From: Dehalococcoidales bacterium
GTDB lineage: Bacteria > Chloroflexota > Dehalococcoidia > Dehalococcoidales > RBG-16-60-22
Reading direction: 5' to 3'
Length of the DNA: 60,706 nucleotides
Assembly (NCBI GenBank): GCA_034434915.1
Contig: DAOTYE010000021.1
Coordinates: forward strand, 1-60,706
In this document: piece by piece, positions 10,186 to 51,068 of the stretch
Layout of the letters: each line of letters begins with the position of its first letter
Numbering within the stretch: the stretch's first letter is position 1
Program-made: the position numbers and the translations under genes
The notes under the pieces: generated by a model
Told to the model about the DNA's origin: nothing
Seen by the model: only the letters and a program-made list of their open reading frames with translations
Database searches by the model: none

Positions 10186-10248
10186 ACTCCTTCGCTTTTC
10201 GGGATGCTGAATCGCGCTACTTGCGCAAATTTACTAATGATTATAACA

Positions 10249-10269
10249 TATGAAGTTGGTTACTTCATA
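10249..10269. promoter_or_regulatory. Palindromic operator candidate between divergent operons
   Basis: TATGAAGT-TGGTT-ACTTCATA, a perfect 8-bp inverted repeat. Confidence 0.55.
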
Positions 10270-10292
10270 AGCCCAGAGGAGAGAACAGACAG

Positions 10293-10928: not shown

Positions 10929-10943
10929 AGGAGGAGGCAACCG

Positions 10944-11963
10944 ATGAGCGCTGAAAAAGAATTGACGCCACGCCGACGCTTTTTGTCCGGGCTGATGGGC
11001 GGCAGGAAAGGGAGGCGCATTTCTGTGGCTAACCCCACCTCAATCGCCTGCGTGGAGCTTATGGATAAGATGGGTGTCTATTTCCCGGAAGCCCATCTTG
11101 ATGCCCGCCAGATGGCAGAGCTGGCGAGTGGCGGCTATGAAGTGCTCGGCTTTGATACCATCATGCCGGAGTTCAGCGTCCAGCAGGAAGCCGCCGCGCT
11201 AGGCTGTGAGGTGGACTGGGGCAACAAAAACATGATGCCTGATGCGAAAACCCACCCTGTGAAAAAGCTGGAAGATGTGGCTATCCCGGAAAATATCCTT
11301 GAGAAACCGTCTATGAAGGTAGTGCTGGATGCCATCTCTCTCCTGCGCAGGGAATACGGGGACCGCGTGGCTATATTGGGCAAAGTCATGGGACCGTGGA
11401 CCATTTGCTATAACATGGTGGGGGTGCAGGACTTCCTCCTTATGGTCTATACTGACCCACAGACAGTAAAGGGCCTCCTTAAAGCCTATGAAGAGGTAAC
11501 TATCGCCTTCGCCAATGCCCAGCTCAGGGCAGGGGCAGACGCCGTGGTGCTCCCTGACCATGCCACCGGTGACCTGGTCAGCCCGCAGACCTACCAGGAA
11601 TTCCTGGTGCCCCTTCACCGTGAGATGCTCAGGCGGATTGGTGGTCCCACTATCCTTCATATCTGCGGCGACTGCTCTGACCGTCTCCACATTTTCGCAG
11701 AAGAAGATTATGACGCTTATCACTTTGAATGGCAGGTAGATGCTAAAAAGGCGGTGCCTATTTTTAAAGGCAAGATGTCACTCATTGGCAATATCAATAA
11801 TGCCACCTGTCTGCTCCGCGGCACGCCGGAAGACGTCCATAAACAGGCGCGCTATGCCATTGAAGCCGGGGTGGATGTTCTGGCGCCGGAGTGTGCCGTT
11901 CCTCTTCAGACGCCGCTGGAGAACCTCAAAGCTATCGTCGCCGCCGCTGAAGAGTATTATTGA
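10944..11963 (+). CDS. MtaA/CmuA family (URO-D fold) methyltransferase
   Basis: EAAALG..V.WG, GP.T, LHICG (Zn HxC), GNI, LAPEC..P..TP.ENL. Confidence 0.9.
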   Translation: MSAEKELTPRRRFLSGLMGGRKGRRISVANPTSIACVELMDKMGVYFPEAHLDARQMAELASGGYEVLGFDTIMPEFSVQQEAAALGCEVDWGNKNMMPDAKTHPVKKLEDVAIPENILEKPSMKVVLDAISLLRREYGDRVAILGKVMGPWTICYNMVGVQDFLLMVYTDPQTVKGLLKAYEEVTIAFANAQLRAGADAVVLPDHATGDLVSPQTYQEFLVPLHREMLRRIGGPTILHICGDCSDRLHIFAEEDYDAYHFEWQVDAKKAVPIFKGKMSLIGNINNATCLLRGTPEDVHKQARYAIEAGVDVLAPECAVPLQTPLENLKAIVAAAEEYY

Positions 11964-33228: not shown

Positions 33229-33972
33229 TCACGTCTCCTGCCATTCTATTACCTTCGTGGTCCAGATGCGCTTCACCGCCTTTTCCAGCACCGGCTGACA
33301 CGGCTCGGCAATGTCCAGTAAAGGTGATAGGGCGCGGTTACTGAACTGCTCCAGAAAAGGACAGCGTTTCTCCAGCAATAATAAAGCAGTCCGCGAACCA
33401 CCGTAAACAATGTAATCAATGCCTTTAGCGTAAGCTTCCACGTGCTCTCGGATATGAGCGCAGACCCTGGTCAGGAAAGTCTCAATCTGCTTTTCACGGT
33501 GACGGCGGAAGCGAGATGATGAAGAACCGCCCTGCCTGTGCCGCTGATGCACCAGCCCCGTGCCAACCTTGCTCGTTAGCAGAGTTTCGCCACGACACAC
33601 GCCGACGGCATACGCTCCCAGCCGCAACAGGACCAGTGCAATGGTGTAGTCTTTTTCCAGAAGCACCCGCAAAGGCTCAGCCAGGCATCCCTGACCACGG
33701 TAGCTACCTGCGAGTGGAAACGGCGGTAGCATGAGCAGCACCCTCGCGCTCCTCCAGAAAAGCGCCGCACCTGTTTTTGAGGTGGTGATGAGGTCCGGTA
33801 AGCCGGCAATCGCTGGCAGGCTGATTTCTTTCTTCAACAATTCCTCAATCTCTGCCTGAGAACGCCCGCCGGGGATATAACAGGAGCCGATGATGTCTCT
33901 TCCCCGCTCCATTTCCTCAAGGAAGCGGAAAATACTTTCCCGGCTCAAGTAAAACTCATGTGCGGTAAACAC
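33229..33972 (-). CDS. acVLRF1 (Vms1/ANKZF1-like release factor) family protein
   Basis: LVLLRLG.YAVG, SKVG...VH.RH..GGSS..RF.R.RE.Q, GG...AL. Confidence 0.8.
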   Translation of the reverse strand: MFTAHEFYLSRESIFRFLEEMERGRDIIGSCYIPGGRSQAEIEELLKKEISLPAIAGLPDLITTSKTGAALFWRSARVLLMLPPFPLAGSYRGQGCLAEPLRVLLEKDYTIALVLLRLGAYAVGVCRGETLLTSKVGTGLVHQRHRQGGSSSSRFRRHREKQIETFLTRVCAHIREHVEAYAKGIDYIVYGGSRTALLLLEKRCPFLEQFSNRALSPLLDIAEPCQPVLEKAVKRIWTTKVIEWQET

Positions 33973-33985
33973 AGGTGGCTTGCTC

Positions 33986-37588: not shown

Positions 37589-37698
37589 CCGCGTAACACC
37601 TGCGTAACGCCTGCGCATCTCCTCAATTACGCACCTTATCTTTTGCGCATTTGCTCTGTTCCGCAAAAAAGTATTGACGTAGTTACGCAGTTGCGCTA
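37589..37698. repeat. Octamer array 1 (8-bp register) upstream of parA
   Basis: From 37611 in register: CTGCGCAT CTCCTCAA TTACGCAC CTTATCTT TTGCGCAT TTGCTCTG TTCCGCAA AAAAGTAT TGACGTAG TTACGCAG TTGCGCTA; plus inverted copies at 37589 and 37600. Confidence 0.9.
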
Positions 37699-37702
37699 TA
37701 AT
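37674..37702 (+). promoter_or_regulatory. Sigma70 promoter of parA
   Basis: TTGACG (37674-79), 17-bp spacer, TATAAT (37697-702). Confidence 0.9.
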
Positions 37703-37710
37703 ACCAGGAG

Positions 37711-38508
37711 ATGCCAGTTATCTGCATTGCCAATCAGAAAGGCGGCGTGGGCAAGACCACCACTGCTGCCGCCCTCGCCCACGGTTTGAGCGAACACGGC
37801 AAAAGAGTCCTGCTTATTGACTGGGACCCGCAGGCAAGCCTTACCATCTCGCTTGGCTTCAATCCAGAACAGCTCCGGAAGACGGTCTACAACGCACTGG
37901 TGTCAGTGGTCAACGGCAATGACCCTCAATCCATACTTGATGTCCTCTCAGCAACAGCCAATCCCTCAGTTGACCTGATACCGGCAAACGTTGAACTTTC
38001 CCAAGCTCAGCTTGACCTGGTGAACGTACCCCAGCGGGAGCAGGTGCTGAAAAAGATAATCCAGCCGCTGCGCAGGCGGTACGCTTTTATCCTCATAGAC
38101 TGCCTGCCCAGCCTGGGTCTGCTCACCATCAATGCCCTTGTTGCCGCAGATAAAGTGCTTATCCCGCTCCAGGCTGATTTCCTCGCCATGAAAGGGCTCG
38201 CCATGCTCCTCACCACAATCATCCGTGTTAAAGAGCGCCTTAACCCCAGATTGGAAATCGCCGGCGTGGTGTTCACCATGACCAATCCCAGAACGCTCCA
38301 CTGCAAAGAGGTCATAGAAGTTACCAAGAAAGCCTTCAGCAACCGCATCCACGTTTTTGACACTGTCATCCCCACCAGCGTCCGCTTTAAAGAAGCCCCC
38401 GCCGCCGGGCAGTCCATCCTGTCCTACGCTCCTGATTCTGAGGGCGCCCAGGCATACCGCCTGCTGACGAAAGAGGTGATGGAAAATGAAACGGGTAAGC
38501 ATTACTGA
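37711..38508 (+). CDS. parA: ParA/Soj family ATPase without an N-terminal HTH
   Basis: Deviant Walker A KGGVGKTT, IDWDPQ.SLT, DC.PSLG.LT.NAL.AAD. Confidence 0.95.
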   Translation: MPVICIANQKGGVGKTTTAAALAHGLSEHGKRVLLIDWDPQASLTISLGFNPEQLRKTVYNALVSVVNGNDPQSILDVLSATANPSVDLIPANVELSQAQLDLVNVPQREQVLKKIIQPLRRRYAFILIDCLPSLGLLTINALVAADKVLIPLQADFLAMKGLAMLLTTIIRVKERLNPRLEIAGVVFTMTNPRTLHCKEVIEVTKKAFSNRIHVFDTVIPTSVRFKEAPAAGQSILSYAPDSEGAQAYRLLTKEVMENETGKHY

Positions 38509-38851
38509 AGAAATGGCATACGGCTCCGCGCTGGACCGCCTCACCGGAGAAGACAAGCTTTTATCTCCACCGGCTCTGGCCAGGACAGCTCCGCCGCGCA
38601 AACCTAAAAAAGGACCGTCTATTGCGGAGACCAATCCTGCCACCATCAAACTTTCCGTGTTCCTGGGCAGAGAAGAGGACGCCTATCTTGAGAGCCTGGC
38701 TTCCACGGCTAAATTCAGCGGTGGTAAAAAGCTGAGCAAGACCAGGCTGATTGAAGCCATGGTGCGCGCCTTCCGCAAGAGTAAACTTGACGTGCGCGGC
38801 GTGAAAACGGATGAGGAGCTCTTCAAAAGAGTAATTGCGCAATTGCGGTAA
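38486..38851 (+). CDS. Small ParA-partner protein, predicted ribbon-helix-helix
   Basis: Overlaps the parA 3' end by 23 bp. Pro/Lys-rich N-tail, then strand TIKLSVFL, helix REEDAYLESLA, helix SKTRLIEAMVRAF. No ParB/Srx motif. Confidence 0.7.
   Translation: MKRVSITEEMAYGSALDRLTGEDKLLSPPALARTAPPRKPKKGPSIAETNPATIKLSVFLGREEDAYLESLASTAKFSGGKKLSKTRLIEAMVRAFRKSKLDVRGVKTDEELFKRVIAQLR
38827..38850. repeat. Octamer array 2 at the stop of the ParA partner
   Basis: AAGAGTAA TTGCGCAA TTGCGGTA. Confidence 0.65.
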
Positions 38852-38902
38852 TAATCAAGCTCAGCACAATTTTCTATGAGGCACAAGCGTTCAGGCTTTA
38901 GC

Positions 38903-38933
38903 TTGACTTCTGGTTCACCGCCTCTGCTATAAT
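38903..38933 (+). promoter_or_regulatory. Extended -10 promoter of hppA
   Basis: TGcTATAAT at 38925-33; TTGACT 19 bp upstream of the -10. Confidence 0.65.
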
Positions 38934-38967
38934 AAACCAAACCCCTGACATTAAAGGAGTGTAATAC

Positions 38968-41196
38968 ATGGGAATCACACTGTTTGATGGGTTCCACGTA
39001 GCGACCACATTTGAGAAGTTCGCCCTCATTGCCGTCCTGGCTGTGGCACTTCTCGGTCTGGCTTACGCCTGGTTTCTCAGAAACCAGATACGCCGCGAAC
39101 CTGAAGGCGATGAGAAGATGCGTAAAATCTCCAATGCCATACGCATCGGCGGAAACGCTTACCTCATGCGCCAGTTCCGCACCATTCTGCTTCTCATTTT
39201 CCTGCTCGCCGTTTTCGTTTTTTTCACCGGTTGGTTCGCCGGGGGGACATCTGCTTACAATAACCCGGTATGGCTTATCGGTCTGGGACGTGCCGGTGGC
39301 TTCCTCATGGGCGCTATCTTTTCCGCCACCGTAGGCTACATCGGCATGAACATGGCGCTCCAGGCTAACGTGAGAGTTGCCCAGGCGGCGCGCACCAGCT
39401 TCACCAATTCACTCAAAATCGCCTACCGCGCCGGCACCATCACCGGCATGCTCACGGACGGGCTGGGACTTCTCGGCGGCACCATCATCTTCATCATCTT
39501 CTTCAAGGATGCGCCGCTGGTCCTCCTCGGCTTCGGGTTCGGCGGAACGCTCCTTGCTCTGTTCATGCGCGTCGGCGGCGGTATCTATACCAAAGCGGCG
39601 GACGTGGGTGCCGACCTCGTTGGCAAGGTGGAAAAGGGAATCCCGGAAGATGACCCGCGCAATGCCGCGGTCATTGCTGACCAGGTCGGTGATAATGTTG
39701 GTGACTGTGCCGGCATGGCGGCGGATATCTTTGAATCTTATGAGGTGACCATCGTCTCCGCCCTTATTCTCGGGCTCCTGCTCACCTTCTCTACCGGTCA
39801 GCTTTACTGGATTATCTTCCCCCTCCTCGTTCGGGCGGCAGGCGTTTTTTCATCAATCATCAGCACCTATTCTGTGCGCGCCCTGCGCGAGGGTGAAAAT
39901 GCCATGAACGCCATCCACCGTGGCTATCTTCTCGCCGCGTTTATCTCCATAACTTCATTCTTCCTCTTTTCCTTTTTCTATGCTCACGACCTCCGTCTCT
40001 TCTGGGCTACGTCAGTGGGCGTGGTACTGGCTATCTCCATACAGTTCCTGACCGACTATTACACGTCCACCGAGCGCAGTCCGGTAAAAGAAATCGCCAG
40101 GTCCACCAAGACTGGTCCCGCCACGACTATCCTCTCCGGTCTGAGCGCCGGCTATGAGAGCACCGTCATGTCAATTATCGTCATCGCTCTCTCCATCCTT
40201 GTCTCCGCCCTTATCTGGCGCGGCATGGAAATCATCTATATCTTCTACGGTGTCGCTCTCTGCGGTATCGGTCTTTTAACGCTGACGGGCAACAACATCG
40301 CCATGGACAGCTTCGGTCCCATCGTAGACAATGCCAACGGCATCGGCGAGATGACTCACCTTGAGCCGAAAGCCCGCAAGACCCTTGCTGACCTTGATGC
40401 CGTGGGCAATACCACCAAGGCAGTCACCAAGGGTATCGCCATCGCCTCCGCCGTCCTTGCCGCGGTGGCGCTGTTCGCCGCCTTCTATGAAGACTATCAA
40501 CTGGAAGCCATCAACCTCATCAAGTGGCAGGTCTTTGTCGCCTTCCTCATCGGTGGCTCTATCCCCTTCCTGTTCAGCTCCATGGCAATCAGAGCCGTGG
40601 GCAGAGCCGCTTACTTCATCGTCAACGAGGTGCGCTGGCAGTTTGCCAATATCAAGGGTCTCTGGGAAGGCACTGCTGAGGCTGACTATGGCAAAGTAGT
40701 CTCTATCTGCACCGGCGCCGCGCAGAGAGAACTCATTTCTCCGGCGCTCCTGGCTATCATCTCGCCCATTGTCATCGGCTTCCTGTTTGGGCTGGAAGCT
40801 CTGGCAGGATTCCTCGCCGGCGTCATACTCGTGGGGCAATTGCTGGCGGTGTTCATGGCAAATGCCGGCGGCGCCTGGGACAATGCCAAAAAGAGCATTG
40901 AAGACGGTCTCTATGGCGGCAAGGGCTCTGATGCACACAAAGCGAGCGTGGTGGGCGATACTGTGGGTGACCCGCTTAAAGATACCGCCGGTCCGGCACT
41001 GAACCCGCTCATCAAGGTCATCAATCTGGTATCAGTCATCGGCGCGTCAATGATGGTGGTGCCAATAGCCGGCGGCGGTTTCAGAGAACGCGGACTGACC
41101 CCTGGCACCATTGCCGTGGCAGTCATCGGTCTGCTGATTATCATCGCCGCCTTCTGGTTTTCCCGCAAGCAGGCTTCCTTCGGCAGAGAAGAATAG
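38968..41196 (+). CDS. hppA: Membrane-bound pyrophosphatase, predicted K+-independent H+-pumping type
   Basis: GGIYTKAADVGADLVGKVE..IPEDDPRN, DNVGD.AGMAAD.FESY, DSFGPI.DNA.GI.EM, GNTTKA (Lys = K+-independent determinant), GDT.GDPLKDTAGP. Confidence 0.95.
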   Translation: MGITLFDGFHVATTFEKFALIAVLAVALLGLAYAWFLRNQIRREPEGDEKMRKISNAIRIGGNAYLMRQFRTILLLIFLLAVFVFFTGWFAGGTSAYNNPVWLIGLGRAGGFLMGAIFSATVGYIGMNMALQANVRVAQAARTSFTNSLKIAYRAGTITGMLTDGLGLLGGTIIFIIFFKDAPLVLLGFGFGGTLLALFMRVGGGIYTKAADVGADLVGKVEKGIPEDDPRNAAVIADQVGDNVGDCAGMAADIFESYEVTIVSALILGLLLTFSTGQLYWIIFPLLVRAAGVFSSIISTYSVRALREGENAMNAIHRGYLLAAFISITSFFLFSFFYAHDLRLFWATSVGVVLAISIQFLTDYYTSTERSPVKEIARSTKTGPATTILSGLSAGYESTVMSIIVIALSILVSALIWRGMEIIYIFYGVALCGIGLLTLTGNNIAMDSFGPIVDNANGIGEMTHLEPKARKTLADLDAVGNTTKAVTKGIAIASAVLAAVALFAAFYEDYQLEAINLIKWQVFVAFLIGGSIPFLFSSMAIRAVGRAAYFIVNEVRWQFANIKGLWEGTAEADYGKVVSICTGAAQRELISPALLAIISPIVIGFLFGLEALAGFLAGVILVGQLLAVFMANAGGAWDNAKKSIEDGLYGGKGSDAHKASVVGDTVGDPLKDTAGPALNPLIKVINLVSVIGASMMVVPIAGGGFRERGLTPGTIAVAVIGLLIIIAAFWFSRKQASFGREE

Positions 41197-41218
41197 GTTA
41201 GAAGACAGAAGTGTGTTT

Positions 41219-41250
41219 GAGACCGCTCCGCAATGGGGCGGTCTCTTTCT
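41219..41250 (+). terminator. Rho-independent terminator after hppA
   Basis: GAGACCGCTCC-GCAAT-GGGGCGGTCTC-TTTCT. Confidence 0.8.
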
Positions 41251-41325
41251 ATTGACCTTGACAAAGGCTATCCAGTAAACTAAAGTCTTGGAGAACAGAA
41301 TAAACCCGTGCTACGGAGGTGCGCT

Positions 41326-42000
41326 GTGAAAAGAAGGGTAGCATTCATCCATACCATGCCCGGGCTGGTGCCCCTCTTCAATGACCTGGCGAAAGAACTC
41401 CTGCCTGATGTGGAAATCTTCCACATGGCAGATGAAAAACTGCTCAAAGATGTAGTGGCGGCAGGCGGTTTGGACCAGGATATGGTGGACCGCGCCGGAA
41501 ACCTCGCCGCCTGCGCTGAAAAATACGGCGCAGACGTCATCATGCTCACCTGCTCCTCATACGGACCGGTCACTAAGATGGTCAAGAACAAAGTCAAGGT
41601 GCCCTTCCTGCGCATAGATGAAGCCATGGCAGATGAGGCGGTGCGCCTGGGCAAGAAGATAGGCGTTATTGCCACAGCCAAAAGCACCCTGAAACCCACC
41701 ACTGACCTTATCAAGGACAGGGCCGAACTGAAAGGCAAAAAGGTGGAGATTGAGACCGTCCTCATCTCGGAGGCATTAAAAGCGCTCCAGAGCGGCGATA
41801 TGGACAACCACGACCGTCTGGTCATGGAAAAGCTAAAAGAGCTGATGCACAGAGTTGATGTCATTGTGCTGGCGCAAGCATCAATCGCCCGTGCCGCCGC
41901 CAAAATCCCTGAATCTGAGCGCAAGGTGCCTTTCCTTTCCAGCCCGCGCCTCGGCGTGCAAAGGCTAAAAGAATTCATCAGTTCGCTCCCCAAGAAATAA
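41326..42000 (+). CDS. Asp/Glu/hydantoin racemase superfamily protein (single catalytic Cys)
   Basis: FIHT, LTCSS, RIDEAMA..AV..G..IGVIAT, VLAQASIA; GGAGGT RBS then GTG. Confidence 0.8.
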   Translation: MKRRVAFIHTMPGLVPLFNDLAKELLPDVEIFHMADEKLLKDVVAAGGLDQDMVDRAGNLAACAEKYGADVIMLTCSSYGPVTKMVKNKVKVPFLRIDEAMADEAVRLGKKIGVIATAKSTLKPTTDLIKDRAELKGKKVEIETVLISEALKALQSGDMDNHDRLVMEKLKELMHRVDVIVLAQASIARAAAKIPESERKVPFLSSPRLGVQRLKEFISSLPKK

Positions 42001-42012
42001 GAGGAGGAAGAC

Positions 42013-43032
42013 ATGACACCATCCAGTCCGGCGAAGGTGAAAGTGCAGGCAATCAACCAGGTGGCTATCTGTGTCTATAACCTGGAGCAGGTATCATGGA
42101 ACTTCTGGAATATCCTGGGCATGGGTCCCTGGGAGATTTATGACTGGGAGTTCCCGCTCATCCACGGCAGGAAATACTACGGCAAGCGAGCTTGGGGACG
42201 GGACCGTATCTCTCTCTTCAGGGCGGGCAAATTGCAGGTGGAGCTGGTTCAGCCGGTGGAAGGAAAATCACTCTACCGGGACTGGCTGGACCAACATGGC
42301 GAAGGCTTGCACCACATCAATTTCTTGGTAGATGATATTAAACCGGTCGCCGCCGCCATGGAAGAAATGGGCTTCCCCTGCATCCAGACCGGATACTATG
42401 GCTTCACCCCTGACAAACAGACCACTTTCAGCTACCATGAGACCACGCCCGCTCTGAAAATCCTGTGGGAGCCGGTAGCCCTGGGCGGGCAGAAGACGGT
42501 CAAGCCCATCTGGGTGCCTCCCACCAGTGACCAGCCCAGCCCGGCGCCGTTCCCCCTGAAGACGCTCAACAAGATTGGCATAGTCGTCAAAGACCTGGAG
42601 CAGACCGCCTGGAACTACTGGAACCTTCTCGGCATCGGTCCGTGGGAAATCTATGACTCTATCTATCCGGCTATTTACGACCGCAAATATCACGGCAAGC
42701 CGGCATTCGCCAGGGAGAAGATTGCGGTGGCGCAGTCCGGGGAGGTGCGGCTTGAGCTGATAGAGCCGCTCGGGGGCACATCAGTCTACGCTGATTTCCT
42801 GAAAGAGCACGGTGAAGGTCTGATTTACCTTAACGCCCCGGTGGATGATGTTGACACTGCCGCCGCGGCTCTCGCTGAAATGGGTTTTCCCAGCCTGGAG
42901 AGCGGCCGCTATGGCAAGCCGCAGGAGAAGAGCGGCTTCAGCTACCATTACATCCCGCCTCTGCGTGCCATCTTCCGCGTGGAACACGAGGGCGGTCCTC
43001 TCGGAGTGAAGACTACCAGTATCCCGGCATAG
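42013..43032 (+). CDS. VOC family protein with two tandem methylmalonyl-CoA-epimerase-like domains
   Basis: Internal duplication W..LG(M/I)GPWEIYD...Y.GK...ELVQP/ELIEP..G.S.Y.D.L..HGEGL. Confidence 0.88.
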   Translation: MTPSSPAKVKVQAINQVAICVYNLEQVSWNFWNILGMGPWEIYDWEFPLIHGRKYYGKRAWGRDRISLFRAGKLQVELVQPVEGKSLYRDWLDQHGEGLHHINFLVDDIKPVAAAMEEMGFPCIQTGYYGFTPDKQTTFSYHETTPALKILWEPVALGGQKTVKPIWVPPTSDQPSPAPFPLKTLNKIGIVVKDLEQTAWNYWNLLGIGPWEIYDSIYPAIYDRKYHGKPAFAREKIAVAQSGEVRLELIEPLGGTSVYADFLKEHGEGLIYLNAPVDDVDTAAAALAEMGFPSLESGRYGKPQEKSGFSYHYIPPLRAIFRVEHEGGPLGVKTTSIPA

Positions 43033-43069
43033 CAAATGCTTTAGCTTTTGACGCGGAAAGGGACTTTAC

Positions 43070-43573
43070 GTGGCAAATAGCGATGCGCCACTATCAGCAG
43101 AAAAAATAATCCGGGAACTAAAAAAAGCAGGCGTCACGCACATTGTCTATCTGCCGGACGATGAAAGCCGCTGTCTGTGCGATGTCCTCAGGCGGCACCC
43201 GGAACTGACGCTGGTCCCAATTTGCCGTGAGGGTGAAGCCATCGCCATCGCCGCCGGTTTGCTGTTTGGCGGGAAGAGTCCCGTGGTCTGGCACCAGAGC
43301 ACCGGTTTCTATGAATCGGGCGATTCTGTAAGAGGGCTGGCGCTTGATTTGGGTCTGCCTCTAGCCATCATCATTGACTGCCGCGGCTGGAAAAGCAATG
43401 CCCCCATGACTGATTCTGCCGCCATATTCATTCAGCCCATTCTGAATGCCTGGGGCATCAGGTACCACATGGTGGAAACTGACGATGATATCGCCAGAAT
43501 CTCGCTGGCATTAAATGAAGCCCGGACAGCGCACAAACCAGTAGCAGTTCTGCTGGGAAGGAAGCTGGCATAA
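43070..43573 (+). CDS. TPP-dependent decarboxylase alpha subunit (ComD / phosphonopyruvate decarboxylase-like)
   Basis: CREGEAIAIAAG (TPP-activating Glu), QSTG..ES, P...RG. Confidence 0.78.
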   Translation: MANSDAPLSAEKIIRELKKAGVTHIVYLPDDESRCLCDVLRRHPELTLVPICREGEAIAIAAGLLFGGKSPVVWHQSTGFYESGDSVRGLALDLGLPLAIIIDCRGWKSNAPMTDSAAIFIQPILNAWGIRYHMVETDDDIARISLALNEARTAHKPVAVLLGRKLA

Positions 43574-43575
43574 CC

Positions 43576-44136
43576 ATGATGGAAAGTCTTGAGGCGCTCA
43601 GGGTTATTTCACGCTACCGCGGCGATGCCATTGTCGTGGCGACCATGACCTCCAACTACGAGTGGTCAAAAGTCTCCGCCAATCCTGACCTTGATTTGCT
43701 GTTCTACGGCACAATGGGCAAAGCGTCATCCCTGGGGCTGGGACTGGCGTTAGCCCGCCCGGACAAGAAAGTGATTGTGCTGGATGGTGACGGCAGTCTC
43801 CTCATGAATTTGGGCTCACTGGTAACCATCGCCCATATGGCGCCGCGCAACTTTATCCATTTCCTGTGTGAGAACCGCGTCTACCGCGTCAGCGGCGGTC
43901 AGCCCACCCCGTGCGCCAGTGAGGTCAGCTACGCCGGTCTGGCACGGTCCGCCGGCTATCCCCGCGTCTATGAGTTTGACACTGTGCCCGGTCTTGAAAA
44001 AAACTTAGAAACGATTATGCGTGAAGATGGTCCTACCTTCGTCTGCCTGAAGGTGGCACCCGTCAAAGAACACCCACGCCTCACCCCCACGCCCGCCATC
44101 TTAGCCCGCTTCAAAGCGGCGCTACAGCGCTCCTAG
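43576..44136 (+). CDS. TPP-dependent decarboxylase beta subunit (ComE-like)
   Basis: G.MG.ASSLGLGLALARPD.KVIVLDGDGSLLMNLG.L...N TPP-binding motif. Confidence 0.85.
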   Translation: MMESLEALRVISRYRGDAIVVATMTSNYEWSKVSANPDLDLLFYGTMGKASSLGLGLALARPDKKVIVLDGDGSLLMNLGSLVTIAHMAPRNFIHFLCENRVYRVSGGQPTPCASEVSYAGLARSAGYPRVYEFDTVPGLEKNLETIMREDGPTFVCLKVAPVKEHPRLTPTPAILARFKAALQRS

Positions 44137-44179
44137 TCCGCCGCGAACTCAGCCCAGAACATATAGTGTCTGACAAGTT

Positions 44180-44211
44180 CTCCGCAATTGCGCAAACAAG
44201 TATTTGCGGAA
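44180..44211. repeat. Octamer array 3
   Basis: CTCCGCAA TTGCGCAA ACAAGTAT TTGCGGAA. Confidence 0.75.
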
Positions 44212-44224
44212 ATCTGTCATAAGA

Positions 44225-44243
44225 CTTGCTTTTCAAAAGCAAG
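44225..44243. promoter_or_regulatory. Palindromic operator over a putative -35
   Basis: CTTGCTTTT-C-AAAAGCAAG, a perfect 9-bp inverted repeat. Confidence 0.65.
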
Positions 44244-44296
44244 AGTGCTAAAAATGAATAGCTCAAAAAATAAATAGAACCAAAAAGGAGGCCGTC

Positions 44297-45256
44297 ATGA
44301 TAAGTGACGTCAGTCAGGTAAAAAAGCTGGCGGTGGTGGGGGCAGGGCTGATGGGACACGGCATTGCCCAGGCATATGCCCAGGAAGGCTATCCGGTCAT
44401 GCTTACCGACTCTGTTCCCGCCGCCCGCGCGAGCGCCAAAGGAAGGATGAAATCAAATCTGGAGACGCTCGCCAGAGGCGGTATTTTCCCTGCCGCAGAG
44501 ATAGAAAAAATACTTGACCGGGTCACCATAGTGGACAGCCTGAAAGAAACGGTAAAAGATGCTGACTTCGTCACTGAGGTGGTCATTGAAGACCTTGACC
44601 TGAAGAAGAAACTATTTAAGGAGATGGAAGACTACTGCTCTCCGGACACCATCCTTGCCAGCAACACCTCTTCATTCCCCATGACTGACATCTCGTCCCT
44701 GATGAGAAAACCGGAAAGAGCCATCGTCACCCACTGGATGAACCCGCCGCCCCTCGTACCGCTGGTGGAAGTGGTGCCGGGGAAAAAGACGGCACCGGAA
44801 ACGGTAAAAGTGGCTATGGACCTCCTGCGCAAGGTAAAGAAAGTCCCGGTACTGCTGAAGAAGGAAATCATCGGCTTTATCATCAACCGCGTCCAGGTGG
44901 CGATGAACCGTGAAGTCTATCACCTGCTGGAGCAGGGTGTGGCAAGCGCGGAGGACATTGATTTGGCAATTGTGACCAGCATAGGCTTCCGGCTGGCAAC
45001 CCAGGGTCCGCTCCAGGTGAGAGACCTTGCCGGGCTGGAGGTAACGCTCAAAGTTGATGAGGTGCTTCTGCCGGAGATTAACTCCTCTACCAAACCGAAC
45101 AGACTGCTCAAAGAGATGGTCGCCAGGGGTGAGGTGGGCGCCAAGAGCGGCAAGGGGTTCTTCACCTATACCCCGGAGTCTCTGGCTAAGATTATCAAGG
45201 AGCGTGACGAGCAGTTTATTCAGCGCCTGAAAATGCAGTACCTGAAAAAAGCGTAA
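44297..45256 (+). CDS. 3-hydroxyacyl-CoA dehydrogenase family protein
   Basis: GAGLMGHGIA, E...E.L.LK..LF, ASNTSS, HWMNPP.L.PLVEV, GFI.NR, GKGF..Y. Confidence 0.93.
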   Translation: MISDVSQVKKLAVVGAGLMGHGIAQAYAQEGYPVMLTDSVPAARASAKGRMKSNLETLARGGIFPAAEIEKILDRVTIVDSLKETVKDADFVTEVVIEDLDLKKKLFKEMEDYCSPDTILASNTSSFPMTDISSLMRKPERAIVTHWMNPPPLVPLVEVVPGKKTAPETVKVAMDLLRKVKKVPVLLKKEIIGFIINRVQVAMNREVYHLLEQGVASAEDIDLAIVTSIGFRLATQGPLQVRDLAGLEVTLKVDEVLLPEINSSTKPNRLLKEMVARGEVGAKSGKGFFTYTPESLAKIIKERDEQFIQRLKMQYLKKA

Positions 45257-45261
45257 AAATC

Positions 45262-45301
45262 TTACTCAATTGCGCAATTGCTCATCAGCGCATTTACGCT
45301 A
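45262..45301. repeat. Octamer array 4 (five tandem units) between convergent genes
   Basis: TTACTCAA TTGCGCAA TTGCTCAT CAGCGCAT TTACGCTA. Confidence 0.85.
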
Positions 45302-45321
45302 TTGATGTCTGGGCAGAAAGG

Positions 45322-46059
45322 CTAAGCAGAACCCAGCTCGTCCAGCTGATACAGTATGAAGCTGACCGCCGCCAGCGCGGCTGTCTCCGCCCTGAGCACC
45401 CTCTTGCCGATGCTCACCGGGATGATGCCGTGAGACTCAGCCATTCTGACCTCTGAGGCAGGAAATCCTCCCTCAGGTCCTATGAAAACGGTGATTTTAT
45501 CGCAGTTGCGCAATTGCGCATTTGCGAGAGTAGATTTCAAGCTCCTGCTTTTTTCCTCTTCCCAGAGCAAAAGCGCGGGGCTTTCCGTTCCCCGGCACGC
45601 CTCCGCAAAACTCACCGCGGGATGAAGCACCGGCAGTCTTGCCCGCTCGGACTGCTCCGCCGCTTCCTGGATAATCTTGCGCCACCTCGCCACTTTCTGC
45701 TCTCCTGGCTTCCTCACCACACAGCGTTCCGAGATAAAAGGAACAAATGCACTTACCCCCAGTTCCACCCCCTTCTGAAGCACGAGCTCAAATTTCTCTG
45801 CCTTGAGCAGTGCCTGGCATAGCGTGATACTGATGCGGGGCTCGCTTTCACTCCGCTTTTTGCTGGCTATCACGCCCTGGGCTGAGTCTTTTCCCAGTTT
45901 GGTCAATTCAAGCTCATACTCCCAGCCGCTATTGTCCAGGACGATGATGTGGTCGCCCGTCTTGAGCCTCAGCACATGGCGAATCTGGTGCGTCTGTTCG
46001 TCAGAGAATGACACTTCGTTACCAGCCATCTGCTCTTGAGCGATGAAAAATCGGTGCAT
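45322..46059 (-). CDS. rsmE: 16S rRNA m3U1498 methyltransferase
   Basis: MHRFF, H.I..VLRL..GD, K..ELGV..F.P..SER, EAAEQS.R, IGPEGG, G.RVLRAETA. Confidence 0.96.
   Translation of the reverse strand: MHRFFIAQEQMAGNEVSFSDEQTHQIRHVLRLKTGDHIIVLDNSGWEYELELTKLGKDSAQGVIASKKRSESEPRISITLCQALLKAEKFELVLQKGVELGVSAFVPFISERCVVRKPGEQKVARWRKIIQEAAEQSERARLPVLHPAVSFAEACRGTESPALLLWEEEKSRSLKSTLANAQLRNCDKITVFIGPEGGFPASEVRMAESHGIIPVSIGKRVLRAETAALAAVSFILYQLDELGSA
45498..45529. repeat. Octamer array 5, inside the rsmE coding sequence
   Basis: TATCGCAG TTGCGCAA TTGCGCAT TTGCGAGA. Confidence 0.85.
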
Positions 46060-46115
46060 CTTGCCCCTCTAGAAGTTTGTCCTAATTATACTATATGTCA
46101 TGCCCTGACAGAGGC

Positions 46116-46253
46116 AAATTCTAAATACTAATTTCTAAACTCTAAATCAATTCAAGATGACCGAAGCTCAAAACAGTATTCGGGAGCGGATTGGGATTTT
46201 AATCGTCTGGATTTAGCCATTGTTTAGAATTTAGAGTTCCGGATTTAGGATTT
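46116..46253. repeat. AT-rich heptamer-repeat element with inverted arms
   Basis: Left arm AAATTCT AAATACT AATTTCT AAACTCT AAATCAA; right arm reverse complement AAATCCT AAATCCG GAACTCT AAATTCT AAACA. Confidence 0.85.
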
Positions 46254-46332
46254 AACTTGATTTGGGGTTAGTTGTTTTCAGTGTTATAATGATGACGGCC
46301 TGCCATGATGCACTTAAAGGAGGGACCTGTTC

Positions 46333-47412
46333 ATGTCACCCGCTGAAATAAAAATCGCCAGAAAACCCTTAGAAGACTTCGCCATGACGGTATTCACCAG
46401 GCTGGGTATGGCGCCGGAAGACGCGGCAAAGGTTGCTTCAGTGCTGGTCTGGGCTAACCTGCGGGGCGTGGACTCTCACGGAGTACAGCTCATTCCCTGG
46501 TATGTGGAGGCGGTGGAAATCGGACACATGAAAGTGAAACCGGACATTAAGATTGTCAAGGAGACGCCCGCCGCCATCTTTATTGACGCTGACCATGCCT
46601 TCGGCGCGGTGGTCACCATCTATGCCATGAAAAAAGTGATGGAGAAGGCGAAGCAGGCAGGCATCGGCTGGGCATTCATCCGCAAGCACAACCACCAGGG
46701 CGCCATGGGCTACTACCCGCTCATCGCCGCAGAGCAGGGCATGGCTGGGCTGGCATACCTCGGCGGCAATACCACCACCGCTCCCTTTGGCGCCCGCTTC
46801 CCCGGCATCGCCAATAGCCCCATCGCCATCTCCGTGCCGGCAAAGCGGCATCGCCCGCTCCTGCTGGACATGGCGCTGAGCCAGGCGGCTGGCGCCAAGC
46901 TCATCCTGGCAAAGGAAAAAGGCATCCCCATACCGGAAGGATGGGCGCTGGACAAGGAAGGCAAGCCCACCACAGACCCTTCCAAAGCCGCTGTCCTGAC
47001 CCCCGTCGGCGGTGCCAAAGGTTCCGGGCTGTCCATCATGATTGAATGCCTCACCAGCGTCCTCGTCGGCTTCCCCAAGGTGGAGCCGGTGGTCACCATG
47101 AAAGAGCCGCCCTTTGGGCTAGGTTCGCCCGCGGGCAACCCCGCCCGCATCCGCCAGCACCTCCAAAACAGCACCGTCATCGCCATTGACATCAGCCAGT
47201 TCACTGACCTTGAGAGCTACAAAGAGCACATTGACAACCTGATTGACGGCATTAAGGCACTGCCTAAAGCAGAGGGATTCACTGAAATCTTCGTCCCCGG
47301 CGAGCCGGAATGGCGCACCATGGATGAACGACTCAAGAACGGCATCCCTATGCCGGAGAAAACTTACCAGAACCTGAAAAAGGTGGCGGAACGGTTCGGC
47401 TTGCCCCTCTGA
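46333..47412 (+). CDS. Ldh_2 family oxidoreductase (malate/L-lactate/sulfolactate dehydrogenase, ComC-like)
   Basis: A.LRGVDSHG, D....FG, NH.GAMGYY, AP.G......G.SPI, LDMA.S, P.GG.KG.GL, PGE.E. Confidence 0.92.
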   Translation: MSPAEIKIARKPLEDFAMTVFTRLGMAPEDAAKVASVLVWANLRGVDSHGVQLIPWYVEAVEIGHMKVKPDIKIVKETPAAIFIDADHAFGAVVTIYAMKKVMEKAKQAGIGWAFIRKHNHQGAMGYYPLIAAEQGMAGLAYLGGNTTTAPFGARFPGIANSPIAISVPAKRHRPLLLDMALSQAAGAKLILAKEKGIPIPEGWALDKEGKPTTDPSKAAVLTPVGGAKGSGLSIMIECLTSVLVGFPKVEPVVTMKEPPFGLGSPAGNPARIRQHLQNSTVIAIDISQFTDLESYKEHIDNLIDGIKALPKAEGFTEIFVPGEPEWRTMDERLKNGIPMPEKTYQNLKKVAERFGLPL

Positions 47413-47483
47413 GCGGGGCTGTAGCGCAAAATAACAGGGATAGAACCTGAAAGAAATAAAGAATATTAAAGCGAAGGAGAACC

Positions 47484-48464
47484 ATGAAAGAATTTGAAAT
47501 TATTGATGCTCACATTCACCTGACACAGTCCGTGGAAGAAGAGGTAGGTTACTATCCTGTCCCCGGCAGGCGCGACCGTGATAGATGGTCCAACCCCAAA
47601 AGACTTATCTCCTATATGGACACCTTTGGTATCTCTAAAATGGTGTTCATGATACTTATCCCGCGGCAATATAGAGCACCCCTCTTTGAAAAAGCCAGGC
47701 TGTCAGAACTGCCCCAGGAGCAAAGGGAGAAAGAGGGCAAGAAGCTCAGTGAGCAAATCGCCGCGCTGACCAGAAAATACAACGAGTGGGGCTGTGAAGT
47801 GGGGCGCAACAACCCGAGACTGCTCCCGTGCGTGGGCATATCGCCCGACCTCGGCAGTGAAAAGGACATCGTCAAAGAGCTGGAACTGAGACTGAAGCAG
47901 GGAGCAAAGGGGGTAAAGATGCACCCCGGCATGTACTCCTTCTATCCTGCGGACGAACGCCTGCTCCCGATGTATGAAAAATGCCAGGAGCTGGGCATAC
48001 CTGTCCTGGCTGACTCCGGTCCCTGGCCCCATTCCCATGAGCTGGTGGTCTTCCCCCTCTGGTTCAGCATGCCCAAAGAAAAACCCCAGCCGGCAGAGCC
48101 CATTAACTTCGCGCCAGTGCTGGAGCAATTCCCCCGTCTCAAGCTCGTCCTCGCCCACCTCGGCTCTGCCTGGTGGGATGAGCGCGTGGAGCTGGCGCTG
48201 AAATACCCCAACGTGCTCTTTGATACCTCCCAGGGCTTCTCTGCCCCGGACCGCATCCCGGTCGTCCCGCACCGCAGTCTGGCAGAGGAAGACGCCGTGC
48301 GCATCTTCCGCAAGATTGGCACTAAAAGAATCTTGTTCGGCACAGACTTCCCGGCAATACCGTCCCAGCCTCAGTTGGAGCAAATCCTGCGCCTGAACCT
48401 GACGGATGATGAAAAACAGATGATTCTGGCGGAGAATGCCAAGCGCGTCTATAACATCAGGTAG
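47484..48464 (+). CDS. Amidohydrolase_2 family protein
   Basis: IIDAHIH, G.KGVKMHP, P.YE.C.ELG.PV, VLAHLG, FGTDFP. Confidence 0.9.
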   Translation: MKEFEIIDAHIHLTQSVEEEVGYYPVPGRRDRDRWSNPKRLISYMDTFGISKMVFMILIPRQYRAPLFEKARLSELPQEQREKEGKKLSEQIAALTRKYNEWGCEVGRNNPRLLPCVGISPDLGSEKDIVKELELRLKQGAKGVKMHPGMYSFYPADERLLPMYEKCQELGIPVLADSGPWPHSHELVVFPLWFSMPKEKPQPAEPINFAPVLEQFPRLKLVLAHLGSAWWDERVELALKYPNVLFDTSQGFSAPDRIPVVPHRSLAEEDAVRIFRKIGTKRILFGTDFPAIPSQPQLEQILRLNLTDDEKQMILAENAKRVYNIR

Positions 48465-48486
48465 CAACCTATGCTTCTGATTGATG

Positions 48487-48586
48487 GTCATTCTGAGGGG
48501 GCAGAGAGACTGCAGAATCTCCATGGGGTGGTTGGTGGTGGAAAGCCCCCGGCTACCCTTAGACCCTGCGCTATGCTCAGGGTGAC
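48487..48586. repeat. REP-like palindromic element
   Basis: Terminal arms GTCATTCTGAG ... CTCAGGGTGAC, with internal GAATCT / AGACCC. Confidence 0.7.
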
Positions 48587-48683
48587 AGCACCACTAAGTC
48601 CTGTTGAAGGGTAACGGAGTCAGAAAAAGGAATTATATAGACAGCAAGAGCAGAACTGATACGCCCTCCGCAAAGGATAAAGA

Positions 48684-49139
48684 ATGAGCAACCTGGCAGG
48701 ATTTCTGACCGGAAAAGGCGTGGAGTTTGAGTTCCTGGAGAAGAAAGTCACCCACCATGCCCAGGAAGCCGCCCAGGCAAGCGGACTCAGCCTTAGTGAG
48801 ATTTTGAAAACCATCGTCTTCATCACTGATGATAAAAGACCAATCATCGGCATCATTCAGGGGGACTGCTCTATCAGCCGCCACAAGCTTCAGCAATGCT
48901 CCGGCGCCAGGTCAGTGCACATCGCCCCGGATAAGGTAGCGGAATCAGTCACCGGCTTCCCCACCGGCGGCATTCCTCCGGTAGGGCACCGCAAAAAGAT
49001 GCCGGTCTTTATAGACAGAGGCGTCATGGCGCATGAGTACATGTGGTGCGGGGGCGGCTCGCGCCAGAAACTGGTCAAGCTGAAGACCGCTGATATCCTC
49101 AGACTGAGTGAAGGCAAAGTGTGTGACCTGAGGATGTAG
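48684..49139 (+). CDS. YbaK/EbsC family aminoacyl-tRNA deacylase
   Basis: I.KTIVF, V...TGF..GGIPP.G, V.ID, .CGGG. Confidence 0.92.
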   Translation: MSNLAGFLTGKGVEFEFLEKKVTHHAQEAAQASGLSLSEILKTIVFITDDKRPIIGIIQGDCSISRHKLQQCSGARSVHIAPDKVAESVTGFPTGGIPPVGHRKKMPVFIDRGVMAHEYMWCGGGSRQKLVKLKTADILRLSEGKVCDLRM

Positions 49140-49154
49140 CGCGGAAAGTTTCTC

Positions 49155-49568
49155 TTATTCCTCCTGTATCAACTGTATCGCCACGTCTGCCACCCTGCGC
49201 GTGTCCATGTGCGCCGCCATAGCGCCGAAGGCGGCTGGAGCCGGTGCATGGATGATGATGTTGACCCCTTTGTCCTTCAGCTCTTTTAGCTCAGCATCAA
49301 GGTCCTCCACCGCGAAGGCGATGTGGTTGAGCCCCTCTCCCTTGGTATCCAGAAACCGCTGGAACATTGAATCCTTCCGGAGCGGCTGGATGAACTCAAT
49401 GGGCGTGGGACCGATTTGTACGAAGTGAGCCCTCTCCCTGGGCGGCTTCTCCGGGAACTCAACCTCCCGTCCATCCACCGCTATCCCGATTGACTTGTAG
49501 TACTCTACCGCCTTGTCTATATCCCTGACGACGATGGCAATATGGTGCAGTTTCCAGTTTTTGCTCAT
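49155..49568 (-). CDS. VOC family protein (methylmalonyl-CoA epimerase-like)
   Basis: LHHIAIVVRDIDKA, IEFIQP, FL..KGEGL.HIAF.V.D, IQLIQ. ORF track start is 49598. Confidence 0.88.
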   Translation of the reverse strand: MSKNWKLHHIAIVVRDIDKAVEYYKSIGIAVDGREVEFPEKPPRERAHFVQIGPTPIEFIQPLRKDSMFQRFLDTKGEGLNHIAFAVEDLDAELKELKDKGVNIIIHAPAPAAFGAMAAHMDTRRVADVAIQLIQEE

Positions 49569-49591
49569 TTCTTCCCTCTTTTTTATATTTT

Positions 49592-50021
49592 TCACCATTT
49601 ATAGCCCTGCGTAAAGACTGCGCCTTCACCCGCCGGACCCGCCCGCTCGGCGTAACGCCTCAGATGCTGGTCTTGTCTTTCGGCTCAAACTCCGGCGACG
49701 CGGTAAGTGCCGCCCCTATCCCTTCTTGAGTCAGCTTCACATCAAGCTTCGCCTGACACACGTCAATGCTGATGATGTCACCATCTTTAGGTGCCCCAAG
49801 CGGTCCCCTGACCGCCGCCTCAGGTGACGTGTAGCTGATTACACCGCCCCTGTTTGACCGCCTCTGCGATGTGCGCCGTTAGATATATCTGCCAAAATCC
49901 GGGCAAAGCTGTTACGCCGATGAACGGTTGCTTCATGTCCTCGCCGTCATAGCTGAGGGCATGCAGAACCGCCCGGTGCGCGGCGCGCTTTCAATGCCGC
50001 TTTGATATTTTCATTCCGCAT
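49592..50021 (-). pseudogene. ilvD: Dihydroxy-acid dehydratase remnant (N- and C-termini joined, core deleted, frameshifted)
   Basis: MRNENIKAALKARRAHRAVLHAL...DMKQPFIGV...HIAEAVKQG joined out of frame near 49845 to ISYTSPEAA..GPLG..KDGDIISID...L.RYA....A..GAV. Confidence 0.8.
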
Positions 50022-50093
50022 GGAGAACTTTTTTCAGGCTGAAATACAGTAAAGTATATACCAGCCGTGCGGCGGTGTCAAAAGGGCGCCATC

Positions 50094-51068
50094 TTATTTC
50101 ATTGCGCTATTGCGCAAATACGCAGTTACGCTATTTTCAATTGCCTTCACTTCATCTAACGTGGTAGCGCCCTTCCCCTGCTCGGGCATCGCTTTGAAGA
50201 TGGCTACTGTCTGATAAACATCTTCTCCTGTCGCCAAAAAGACCTCATACATCAGGGGGAGATGCCGGGTATAGGTCATCTGGAAAGCGATGAAAGCGTT
50301 ATTAAGCTGGTCAAACTTTATCCGGGCGGCGCTTATGAAGGCGGCGCTCATTGCCTCAAGCAGTCTCTTCTTCTGTGTCAAAGTCTCAGCTTCTGAAATT
50401 GCCCCGCGGTGAAATGCCGAGTAGAGGCTGGTGAGCTCATCGTAGTAGCTCAGGAAGATATGGCTGGTCTTTACCTTTCTCTCCAGCTCGCCCTGCAAGT
50501 CTTTATAGACCAACGAATCCCGCCCGAACCTCTCCCCAACAAAGAGCATGGCGGCGGCATAGCCTATCACCTCTCCGGAAGATTCTTCTATCCCCAGCGG
50601 CAGGTCTATTTGCTCATGCCAGTCCTCATGGAAGATAATGAAAATGAACCGGTGTAGCGGCTCGCGGAGGAGCAGTTTAGTTACCGGCGTCTTCACTCCG
50701 GCGATGGACGGAATCTCATAGAAAAAAATATCGTAGCGCTCAGGGTCTAAACCGGCATCTCCGGGCTTACCCTGACCGTTCTTGAGCGCCGGGTCGTCCA
50801 GAGAATAGGGAAGCTCGGTCGCCGACGTGTAGAAATAGTAGGGATACGATTCCAAATCTCCGGCATATTCCTTGAAGTTATCCGTCTCAGTGAAGCCCAG
50901 CTTCAGCTCAAAGGCTTTTATTTCCTCTATCAGCGCCAGTCTTTGCTTGCTGGTGAGCTGGGGGTTGGAAACACAGCCGGTTAGAACCGGCACCAGAGCC
51001 ACCAGCACGGCGAGCAAAAGCAGACTTATTCTTAGCTTCAGGCTCTTATGTCGCTGAAACATCTCCAT
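50094..51068 (-). CDS. Putative lipoprotein zinc metallopeptidase (aminopeptidase-like)
   Basis: Hydrophobic signal with LTGC lipobox; IFHEDWH (HExxH) followed by EE.SG. Confidence 0.65.
   Translation of the reverse strand: MEMFQRHKSLKLRISLLLLAVLVALVPVLTGCVSNPQLTSKQRLALIEEIKAFELKLGFTETDNFKEYAGDLESYPYYFYTSATELPYSLDDPALKNGQGKPGDAGLDPERYDIFFYEIPSIAGVKTPVTKLLLREPLHRFIFIIFHEDWHEQIDLPLGIEESSGEVIGYAAAMLFVGERFGRDSLVYKDLQGELERKVKTSHIFLSYYDELTSLYSAFHRGAISEAETLTQKKRLLEAMSAAFISAARIKFDQLNNAFIAFQMTYTRHLPLMYEVFLATGEDVYQTVAIFKAMPEQGKGATTLDEVKAIENSVTAYLRNSAMK
50102..50133. repeat. Octamer array 6, inside the 3' end of the peptidase gene
   Basis: TTGCGCTA TTGCGCAA ATACGCAG TTACGCTA. Confidence 0.88.

Follow-up and report, generated by a model that had tools for sequence, protein, structure and literature searches.

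In essentially all bacteria, chromosome segregation by ParA is considered to require the CTPase clamp ParB together with its site parS, and adaptors of the ribbon-helix-helix (RHH) type are regarded as the solution of plasmids (type Ib systems) or of archaea (SegAB). What, then, is the function of a chromosomal parA gene that is followed by the gene of a small protein other than ParB and is surrounded by tandem arrays of an 8-bp repeat? This question is raised by a stretch of 60,706 nucleotides from a Dehalococcoidales bacterium (contig DAOTYE010000021.1 of assembly GCA_034434915.1), hereafter called the window, in which parA (37711-38508, plus strand) overlaps the gene of its partner (38486-38851, plus strand; 121 residues) by 23 nucleotides and six octamer arrays lie at and downstream of the pair. 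The answer favoured here, which is judged moderately probable, is that the pair and its arrays constitute an autoregulated, partition-type module for the positioning of DNA that is native to the chromosomes of the Dehalococcoidales.

The six arrays described in the initial annotation were verified by direct reading and with an independent weight matrix, and all of them keep a strict 8-bp register. The array over the parA promoter (37611-37698, plus strand) has 11 slots, eight of them with a unit score of at least 3 bits in the per-slot matrix scores, and is preceded by two out-of-register units, CGCGTAA and CTGCGTAA (37590-37607, plus strand), the whole element covering positions 37589-37702. 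Another array (38827-38850, plus strand; AAGAGTAA TTGCGCAA TTGCGGTA) lies in the 3' end of the partner gene, where its codons are those for R V I A Q L R and the stop. The other four are dispersed. The array at 44180-44211 (CTCCGCAA TTGCGCAA ACAAGTAT TTGCGGAA; matrix score 16.9) is intergenic, some 90-110 bp 5' of a 3-hydroxyacyl-CoA dehydrogenase gene (44297-45256); the five units at 45262-45301 (TTACTCAA TTGCGCAA TTGCTCAT CAGCGCAT TTACGCTA; score 27.1) lie between the convergent 3' ends of that gene and rsmE; the array at 45498-45529 (TATCGCAG TTGCGCAA TTGCGCAT TTGCGAGA; score 25.3) is within rsmE (45322-46059, minus strand); and the four units at 50102-50133 (TTGCGCTA TTGCGCAA ATACGCAG TTACGCTA; score 28.8, the highest in the window) occupy the 3' end, ~13 codons long, of a gene for an aminopeptidase-like protein (50094-51068, minus strand). 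Both of the dispersed coding arrays are spelled with the rare codons CAA and TTG.

The octamer arrays are real, well delimited and far beyond chance. Exact copies of TTGCGCAA number six in 60.7 kb as against about 0.9 expected, the expectation being our own estimate from the base composition. Tandem runs of units with up to two mismatches number eight as against 1.18 in third-order Markov simulations, those of at least three units two as against 0.01, and the histogram of distances between pairs of units has peaks at offsets of 8, 16, 24 and 32 bp only. Furthermore, the weight matrix, which was trained solely on the parA operators of other genomes, then symmetrised and scored over three slots, gave peaks above its ceiling of 16.4 (the highest score in 60 simulated windows) at 37675, 38827, 44188, 45262, 45506 and 50102. 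No other three-slot peak in the window exceeds this ceiling, in agreement with the earlier impression that comparable arrays are missing elsewhere; an artefact of chance or composition is ruled out by the simulations, the offset histogram and the independently trained matrix. The weak two-unit echo suspected at 10212 did not stand, being a lone exact octamer whose in-register neighbours (-16 and -8) are at chance level, and 4.9 kb of extra DNA from a different contig, reached through the protein at the contig end, contains no arrays. The recurrent odd slots AAAAGTAT and ACAAGTAT proved to be genuine, since they match a conserved GAGTA-type unit in the operator and the 3' site of relatives; they are explained by the GAGTA/ACTC-type unit being a regular component of the site. 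All four dispersed arrays are found at most 11.4 kb downstream of the operon, and the remaining ~49 kb have none; the GC skew is monotonic over the whole window.

The comparison was extended to 80 loci from GTDB species representatives, including the complete chromosomes CP070842.1 (2.30 Mb) and CP070693.1 (1.12 Mb) and a 1.47-Mb contig, and the gene pairing was counted in the 78 loci that have the DNA. In the window, octamers fill the 17 bp between the -35 hexamer of parA, TTGACG (37674-37679, plus strand), and its -10 hexamer, TATAAT (37697-37702, plus strand), and TTGACG-17-TATAAT gives 11 of 12 matches in a promoter scan. The consensus across relatives, tTgCGcAA aaGAGtAT TGACGCAa TTGCGCAA TTGCGCTA TAAT, is conserved base for base; the -35, the spacer and the -10 are built from octamers in 74 of the 75 loci, and the 17-bp spacer is invariant in 67 of 67. 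The promoter array bears the signature of an operator because a spacer that is normally unconstrained is conserved, and the operator role suggested in the initial annotation is supported to this extent. In the window (37697-37713) the -10 hexamer ends only 8 nt 5' of the parA ATG (~19 nt in most relatives), and therefore the parA mRNA is expected to be leaderless or nearly so; the AGGAG directly 5' of the ATG is too close to it for a normal Shine-Dalgarno role.

A further site is written into the coding sequence of the partner. Among 44 relatives that retain the tail R[VA][ITV]AQ[LMV]R, the codon GCG is used in 44 of 44 (background 18%), CAA in 43 of 44 (13%) and TTG in 31 of 36 (7.5%), together with AGA in 40 of 44 and GTA in 39 of 41. 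These rare codons spell AGAGTA-ATTGCGCAATTGCGC, a motif that often runs past the stop codon as TAATGAGTAATTACG, and 44 of 75 loci show a matrix peak at this 3'-terminal position. The tail chooses rare codons, and selection therefore acts on the DNA, independently of the protein. An origin of the 38827 array as a by-product of a conserved IAQLR tail was also considered and is ruled out, as synonymous codons have been chosen that build the motif.

The pairing of the two genes is invariant, since parA immediately precedes the gene of the partner in each of the 78 Dehalococcoidales loci. ParA is a Soj-type protein of 265 residues whose Walker A motif is deviant (NQKGGVGKT) and which has no N-terminal helix-turn-helix (HTH), as had been noticed at first: its only Pfam matches are AAA_31 (1.2e-58) and CbiA, and the ATPase domain comprises residues 2-235. 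The nearest solved structures are those of Myxococcus xanthus ParA (8RAY, 1.1e-55), Thermus Soj (3e-46) and Helicobacter pylori Soj (1e-44), the chromosomal ParA of Mycobacterium being also among the best matches in the PDB, and the similarity is far weaker to plasmid δ (2oze, 1.4e-18) and archaeal SegA (7dut, 3.9e-15). By these sequence relationships, ParA is a member of the chromosomal Soj clade and not of the ParF/δ clade. In addition, the values for ParA (77%) and the partner (76%), compared with those for the neighbours PPase (84%) and MutS2 (77%), show that the pair diverges at about the rate of neighbouring housekeeping genes.

These data bear on the origin of the module, for which the initial annotation had proposed the domestication of a plasmid system. 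An integrated relic of a mobile element such as a plasmid, amounting to a recent domestication of a type Ib cassette, would agree with the cassette-like architecture and with the loss of synteny around the pair beyond close relatives, but the surroundings are housekeeping genes, the 60.7 kb contain no genes for integrase, replication or conjugation, the ParA is of the chromosomal Soj clade, and tblastn of the partner against 72,556 plasmids and 50,697 phages gave no match. Moreover, the family of the partner, which has over 1,500 members within a single order, shows housekeeping-like divergence, and homologous loci are situated on the complete chromosomes of 1.12 and 2.30 Mb. A relic of this kind is consequently held to be most improbable; the chromosomal context that had been noted is upheld, and the domestication is not.

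The partner has 1548 homologues, the best 120 of which are 65-82% identical to it, and the few whose source is named come from Dehalococcoidales or Chloroflexota. In an alignment of the family (A1), three regions are distinguished: an invariant N-terminal peptide (residues 1-21; MKRxSITEExAYGxALDRLTG), a variable Pro/Lys-rich linker (22-53) and a highly conserved C-terminal domain (54-121), which opens with the extended segment IKLSVFL, and in this segment K55-L56-S57-V58-F59 are invariant order-wide, just like the octamer motif in the DNA. The initial description of it as a non-ParB protein is confirmed in so far as neither ParB_N nor HTH_ParB was detected in scans of Pfam and NCBIfam, where no other family matched either. 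A profile made from A1 found nothing at E <=10 among all PDB chains, which include the SegB structures (PMC8682754), except a designed protein.

Modelling of the partner with AlphaFold2 from the shallow alignment A1 was unusable (predicted local distance difference test score, pLDDT, 55) and was repeated with a more diverse alignment, A2, which gave a mean pLDDT of at least 89 in each 10-residue block from residue 61 to the C-terminus. In the model the extended segment is followed by helices 62-77, 85-99 and 109-120, and the N-terminal peptide contains a short helix, 9-19. The succession of the IKLSVFL segment, helix 62-77, the turn FSGGKKLSKT and helix 85-99 fits the RHH pattern, in which an N-terminal β-strand precedes two helices with a G-x-S/T turn and the dimer is intertwined; the model is of a monomer, which cannot show a two-stranded ribbon. 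When the model was submitted to Foldseek, five of the top ten matches were RHH proteins (Reg576, AtaR, TacA2 and ParD2 are among the top matches), all at E >5, and SegB was absent from the top matches. The C-terminal domain is read as probably an RHH with an extra C-terminal helix. The RHH fold claimed in the initial annotation is thus probable, although no sequence family and no structure was matched significantly. As for the N-terminal peptide, a short helix is likewise predicted for the ParA-interaction motif at the N-terminus of M. xanthus ParB, where it would dock on the dimer of ParA (PMC12462528). An adaptor role of the partner is indicated because its N-terminal peptide is invariant and its pairing with ParA is obligatory.

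The C-terminal domain is not confined to this architecture. A search of 1.84 billion cluster representatives gave 124 matches, and the full-length architecture is essentially a single 50% cluster, but the domain recurs in many proteins of 75-110 residues. Some of these distant relatives have N-termini that resemble the ParA-interaction motif of ParB, for example KRASLEKGRGISILFGEE and KRASITDN, and of the four relatives whose contigs were looked up, two (L081 and L082) are encoded immediately 3' of a ParA. In these two the strand sequences differ, as do the repeats 5' of their parA genes, many spacings of which are multiples of 8 bp. Judged from sequence, the domain represents an unrecognised family of putative DNA-binding modules that appears to have been used repeatedly as a ParA adaptor. 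In two proteins of about 200 residues (P0145 and P0154) it is fused to a PilZ domain, which binds cyclic di-GMP.

Are the dispersed arrays of the window also characteristic of the relatives? Outside the operator and the 3' site of the partner, 44 further arrays above the simulation ceiling are present in the flanks of 27 of 75 loci. Their density is 0.080 per kb between -5 and -0.13 kb of the operon, 0.048 per kb between +1.25 and +6 kb and 0.040 per kb between +6 and +11 kb, and falls to zero in the 146 kb available between -10 and -5 kb (the probability of finding none there at the near-operon rate is ~1e-4). The neighbouring genes vary between lineages, synteny being kept only for L003 and L008, and because the neighbours are not conserved the arrays follow the par operon and not particular genes. 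The initial annotation had the centromere spread over housekeeping genes; what stands of this is the concentration of arrays near the operon, and what needs correction is the dispersal over such genes, since extra arrays vary with the lineage, were found in 27 of 75 relatives in the available DNA and are mostly intergenic, at positions that are not conserved.

Arrays away from par genes were sought in metagenomes with TTRCGCAATTRCGCAA, a 16-mer that was insufficiently specific and gave at least 120 stretches. Among the matches listed, none encodes the pair or a member of the family, most come from unrelated organisms or belong to another palindrome family, and only one contig (L122) is a clear Dehalococcoidales contig with several arrays. 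This contig of 10.2 kb has three degenerate arrays (at 853, 7319 and 9504) and no par genes, and it is syntenic with the par-flanking DNA of L065 and L051. The synteny implies that the operon may lie just off the contig, the alternative being that arrays do occur away from the operon. Further metagenome contigs (L100, L123 with three copies, L160, L161 and L178) carry, several times each, a 32-bp near-perfect palindrome of the same octamer, written as TTGCGTAGTTGCGCAA followed by TTGCGCAACTACGCAA, and encode no par-family protein; in these contigs, a different DNA-binding protein of some other taxon probably recognises the palindrome.

The identity of the array-binding protein also has to be considered. 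A nucleoid-associated protein or global regulator, for which the par operon would be one target among others, might bind the arrays instead of the partner: the link between partner and arrays is a putative one, none of the known DNA-binding families matched the partner, and L122 has three arrays with no par genes on its 10.2 kb. This is nevertheless regarded as improbable, as nearly all genomes have arrays on either side of the operon, where they are concentrated whatever the neighbours, the motif has been selected within the coding sequence of the partner itself, tandem 8-bp units are a typical architecture of RHH sites, and L122 is syntenic with the par flanks of L065 and L051, so that its operon may be just beyond the contig end.

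With the partner as the array-binding protein, the module would work in the following way. The partner would dimerise through its RHH-like C-terminal domain and one dimer would occupy each 8-bp unit, a unit being a 4-bp GCGC, ACGC or ACTC box flanked by AATT-type spacers, and the dimers would coat the arrays cooperatively. In the parA promoter, where octamers make up the -35, the spacer and the -10, the bound dimers would act at an operator, and the operon would repress itself. Together with the array in the 3' end of the partner gene and those within ~10 kb, the promoter array would load many dimers and give rise to a centromere-like complex, the N-terminal peptides of which, on their flexible linkers, would contact ATP-bound, nucleoid-bound dimers of the Soj-type ParA and stimulate their ATPase. 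The chromosome region loaded in this way would be the presumed cargo, which a ParA gradient of the usual kind would then move or position. Tandem sites of this kind are also known from the met boxes of MetJ, where palindromes of 8 bp follow one another in register, every unit takes up one RHH dimer and the dimers make cooperative contacts; MetJ, unlike the partner, is a metabolic repressor without a ParA partner or an N-terminal adaptor peptide.

To which of the known partition systems does the module correspond? With the canonical ParABS system (Soj-Spo0J-parS) it shares a ParA of the Soj clade and the position of the partner gene, which is that usual for parB, and N-terminal peptides like that of ParB occur in some of the partner's distant relatives. 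The spo0J gene of Bacillus subtilis contains a site within it, and a site likewise lies inside the partner gene here. Unlike ParB, the partner has neither the ParB_N CTPase domain nor HTH_ParB. No canonical parS (up to two mismatches) is present in the window or the 80 loci, 1.1 Mb in total that represent the par neighbourhood only, and no Spo0J-like gene was found in the same DNA with a Spo0J probe. A partner that lacks CTPase and clamp domains is unlikely to spread by sliding, and the multiple arrays may serve in place of ParB spreading.

The plasmid-borne δ-ω pair of pSM19035 differs in that its ω repeats are 7-bp heptads, as against the octamers of the window, and in that δ is distant from this ParA (the 2oze match given above). 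It is comparable in its logic: ω is an RHH repressor that binds short tandem repeats which are both operators and centromeres at several promoters, and the N-terminal tail of ω activates the Walker-type ParA δ (PMC3074150, PMC9499535).

The resemblance to TP228 is closer in the register of the sites. There, one RHH dimer of ParG binds one 4-bp ACTC box, the boxes of OF/parH are separated by regular 4-bp AT-rich spacers, which makes an 8-bp period, and the operator functions as the centromere as well (PMC3130281). The parallel with type Ib systems drawn in the initial annotation is strengthened by this shared period. As in ParF-ParG, a small HTH-less ParA is followed by a small partner with a flexible N-terminal tail and a compact, putative DNA-binding C-terminal domain, and as in parH/OF, degenerate 4-bp boxes with an 8-bp period and mixed orientation lie directly 5' of the operon, some of the units containing ACTC or GAGT boxes. 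Unlike TP228, the present system is chromosomal and order-wide, its 265-residue ParA is of the Soj clade and not of the ParF type, its partner resembles neither ParG nor any RHH family of Pfam detectably in sequence, its main box is GCGC or ACGC, and additional arrays occur, one within the partner gene and others at distances of kilobases.

The archaeal SegAB of Sulfolobus solfataricus is a chromosomal cassette in which SegA is homologous to bacterial chromosomal ParA and SegB, a site-specific RHH protein of 109 residues that is described as archaea-specific, binds sites just 5' of segA; the unstructured N-terminus of SegB stimulates the ATPase, and multiple dimers form a higher-order complex (PMC8682754). 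The combination of a chromosomal ParA-type ATPase, a small adaptor and sites just 5' of the ATPase gene is the same here, whereas the organism is bacterial, the partner profile showed no similarity to SegB in the search of PDB chains, the match to SegA is only 3.9e-15, and the sites of SegB are two palindromes instead of arrays in 8-bp register. SegAB precedes the present case, which is accordingly not the first chromosomal system of ParA and RHH adaptor (PMC8682754). By analogy, the best reading is that the module works like ParFG/parH of TP228 or archaeal SegAB but on a chromosomal Soj-clade ParA. The partition logic is thus known already from type Ib systems and SegAB, and what is new is a Soj-type ParA with a new adaptor family, conserved order-wide. 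No paper describing this system was found in the literature searched.

Several observations weigh against the reading as a partition-type module. The RHH assignment fails all sequence-family tests and its Foldseek E-values are not significant; 48 of the 75 relatives have no extra arrays in the available flanks, and the positions of the arrays are not conserved; the density downstream is still above zero at +11 kb; and the distant relative L081 (199-2280) has a convergent canonical ParB, with ParB_N and HTH_ParB, beside its ParA and a 144-residue partner carrying a ParB-like N-terminal peptide. As the L081 locus holds both, a small adaptor and ParB can coexist. In addition, 32 of 44 dispersed arrays (40 from relatives and the four of the window) are intergenic although the genomes are mostly coding, and in one relative (L039), where one array is a perfect four-unit palindrome, each of six successive intergenic regions about the operon has an array, and several of these arrays lie 25-200 bp 5' of start codons.

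The last two points fit a local repressor regulon as well, in which the partner would be mainly a transcription factor at its own promoter and those of its neighbours, ParA would act elsewhere (on a non-DNA cargo or in the regulation of replication) and the arrays would not be a centromere. The array at 44180, about 90 bp 5' of a gene, would suit such a regulon, and the plasmid RHH partition proteins ω and ParG are known to double as repressors. On the other hand, three of the four dispersed arrays of the window are away from promoters, being placed between convergent 3' ends, in the interior of rsmE and in the last codons of the peptidase gene, and the conserved array in the 3' end of the partner gene has no obvious promoter role. 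Furthermore, no coherent set of genes emerges because the neighbours differ between lineages, and the invariant N-terminal peptide and the obligatory pairing with ParA point to an adaptor. A regulon alone is accordingly considered rather unlikely. For the partition-type module, a centromere role of the arrays, and any replacement of ParB by it, are plausible. A wider proposal can be put forward tentatively, as possible and no more than that: the Dehalococcoidales would be without ParB-parS and would segregate or organise their chromosome by a bacterial counterpart of SegAB, in which a Soj-clade ParA and a hitherto unrecognised family of small RHH-like adaptors act on a multi-kilobase centromere of arrays in 8-bp register, scattered over intergenic and also coding DNA near the par operon, that replaces the sliding of ParB-CTP.

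Other features of the window may be of interest in their own right. An open reading frame (ORF) of 888 residues (30524-33190, minus strand) fuses an aminomethyltransferase (GCV_T) to a full serine hydroxymethyltransferase, both of which are enzymes of folate one-carbon metabolism. At 33229-36358 (minus strand), a homologue of the acVLRF1-type peptidyl-tRNA release factor lies directly 3' of MutS2/Smr; MutS2 acts in the rescue of collided ribosomes, and the two genes would therefore be a ribosome-rescue pair. A corrinoid methyltransferase cluster (5683-11963) encodes a RACo reductive activase, a pterin-binding methyltransferase, a B12-binding protein and a URO-D-like methyltransferase, and a lone TTGCGCAA at 10221 is situated within its divergent promoter region. 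Finally, long ORFs overlap on opposite strands at 41280-42056 (minus) and 41308-42000 (plus), and the former, of 258 residues, has no match in Pfam or NCBIfam.

What emerges is that a whole bacterial order, including the organohalide-respiring Dehalococcoides group, has a Soj-type ParA tied to a small, unannotated partner that is not a ParB and is accompanied by a conserved and easily recognised set of DNA sites. If it is true that this pair handles the chromosome, it would constitute an independent bacterial route to a chromosomal centromere. It would also be a natural case for examining how an adaptor that does not spread can assemble a large partition complex, namely by means of many dispersed arrays. 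In addition, it would define a new protein family of more than 1,500 members, together with distant relatives that are linked to ParA or fused to PilZ.

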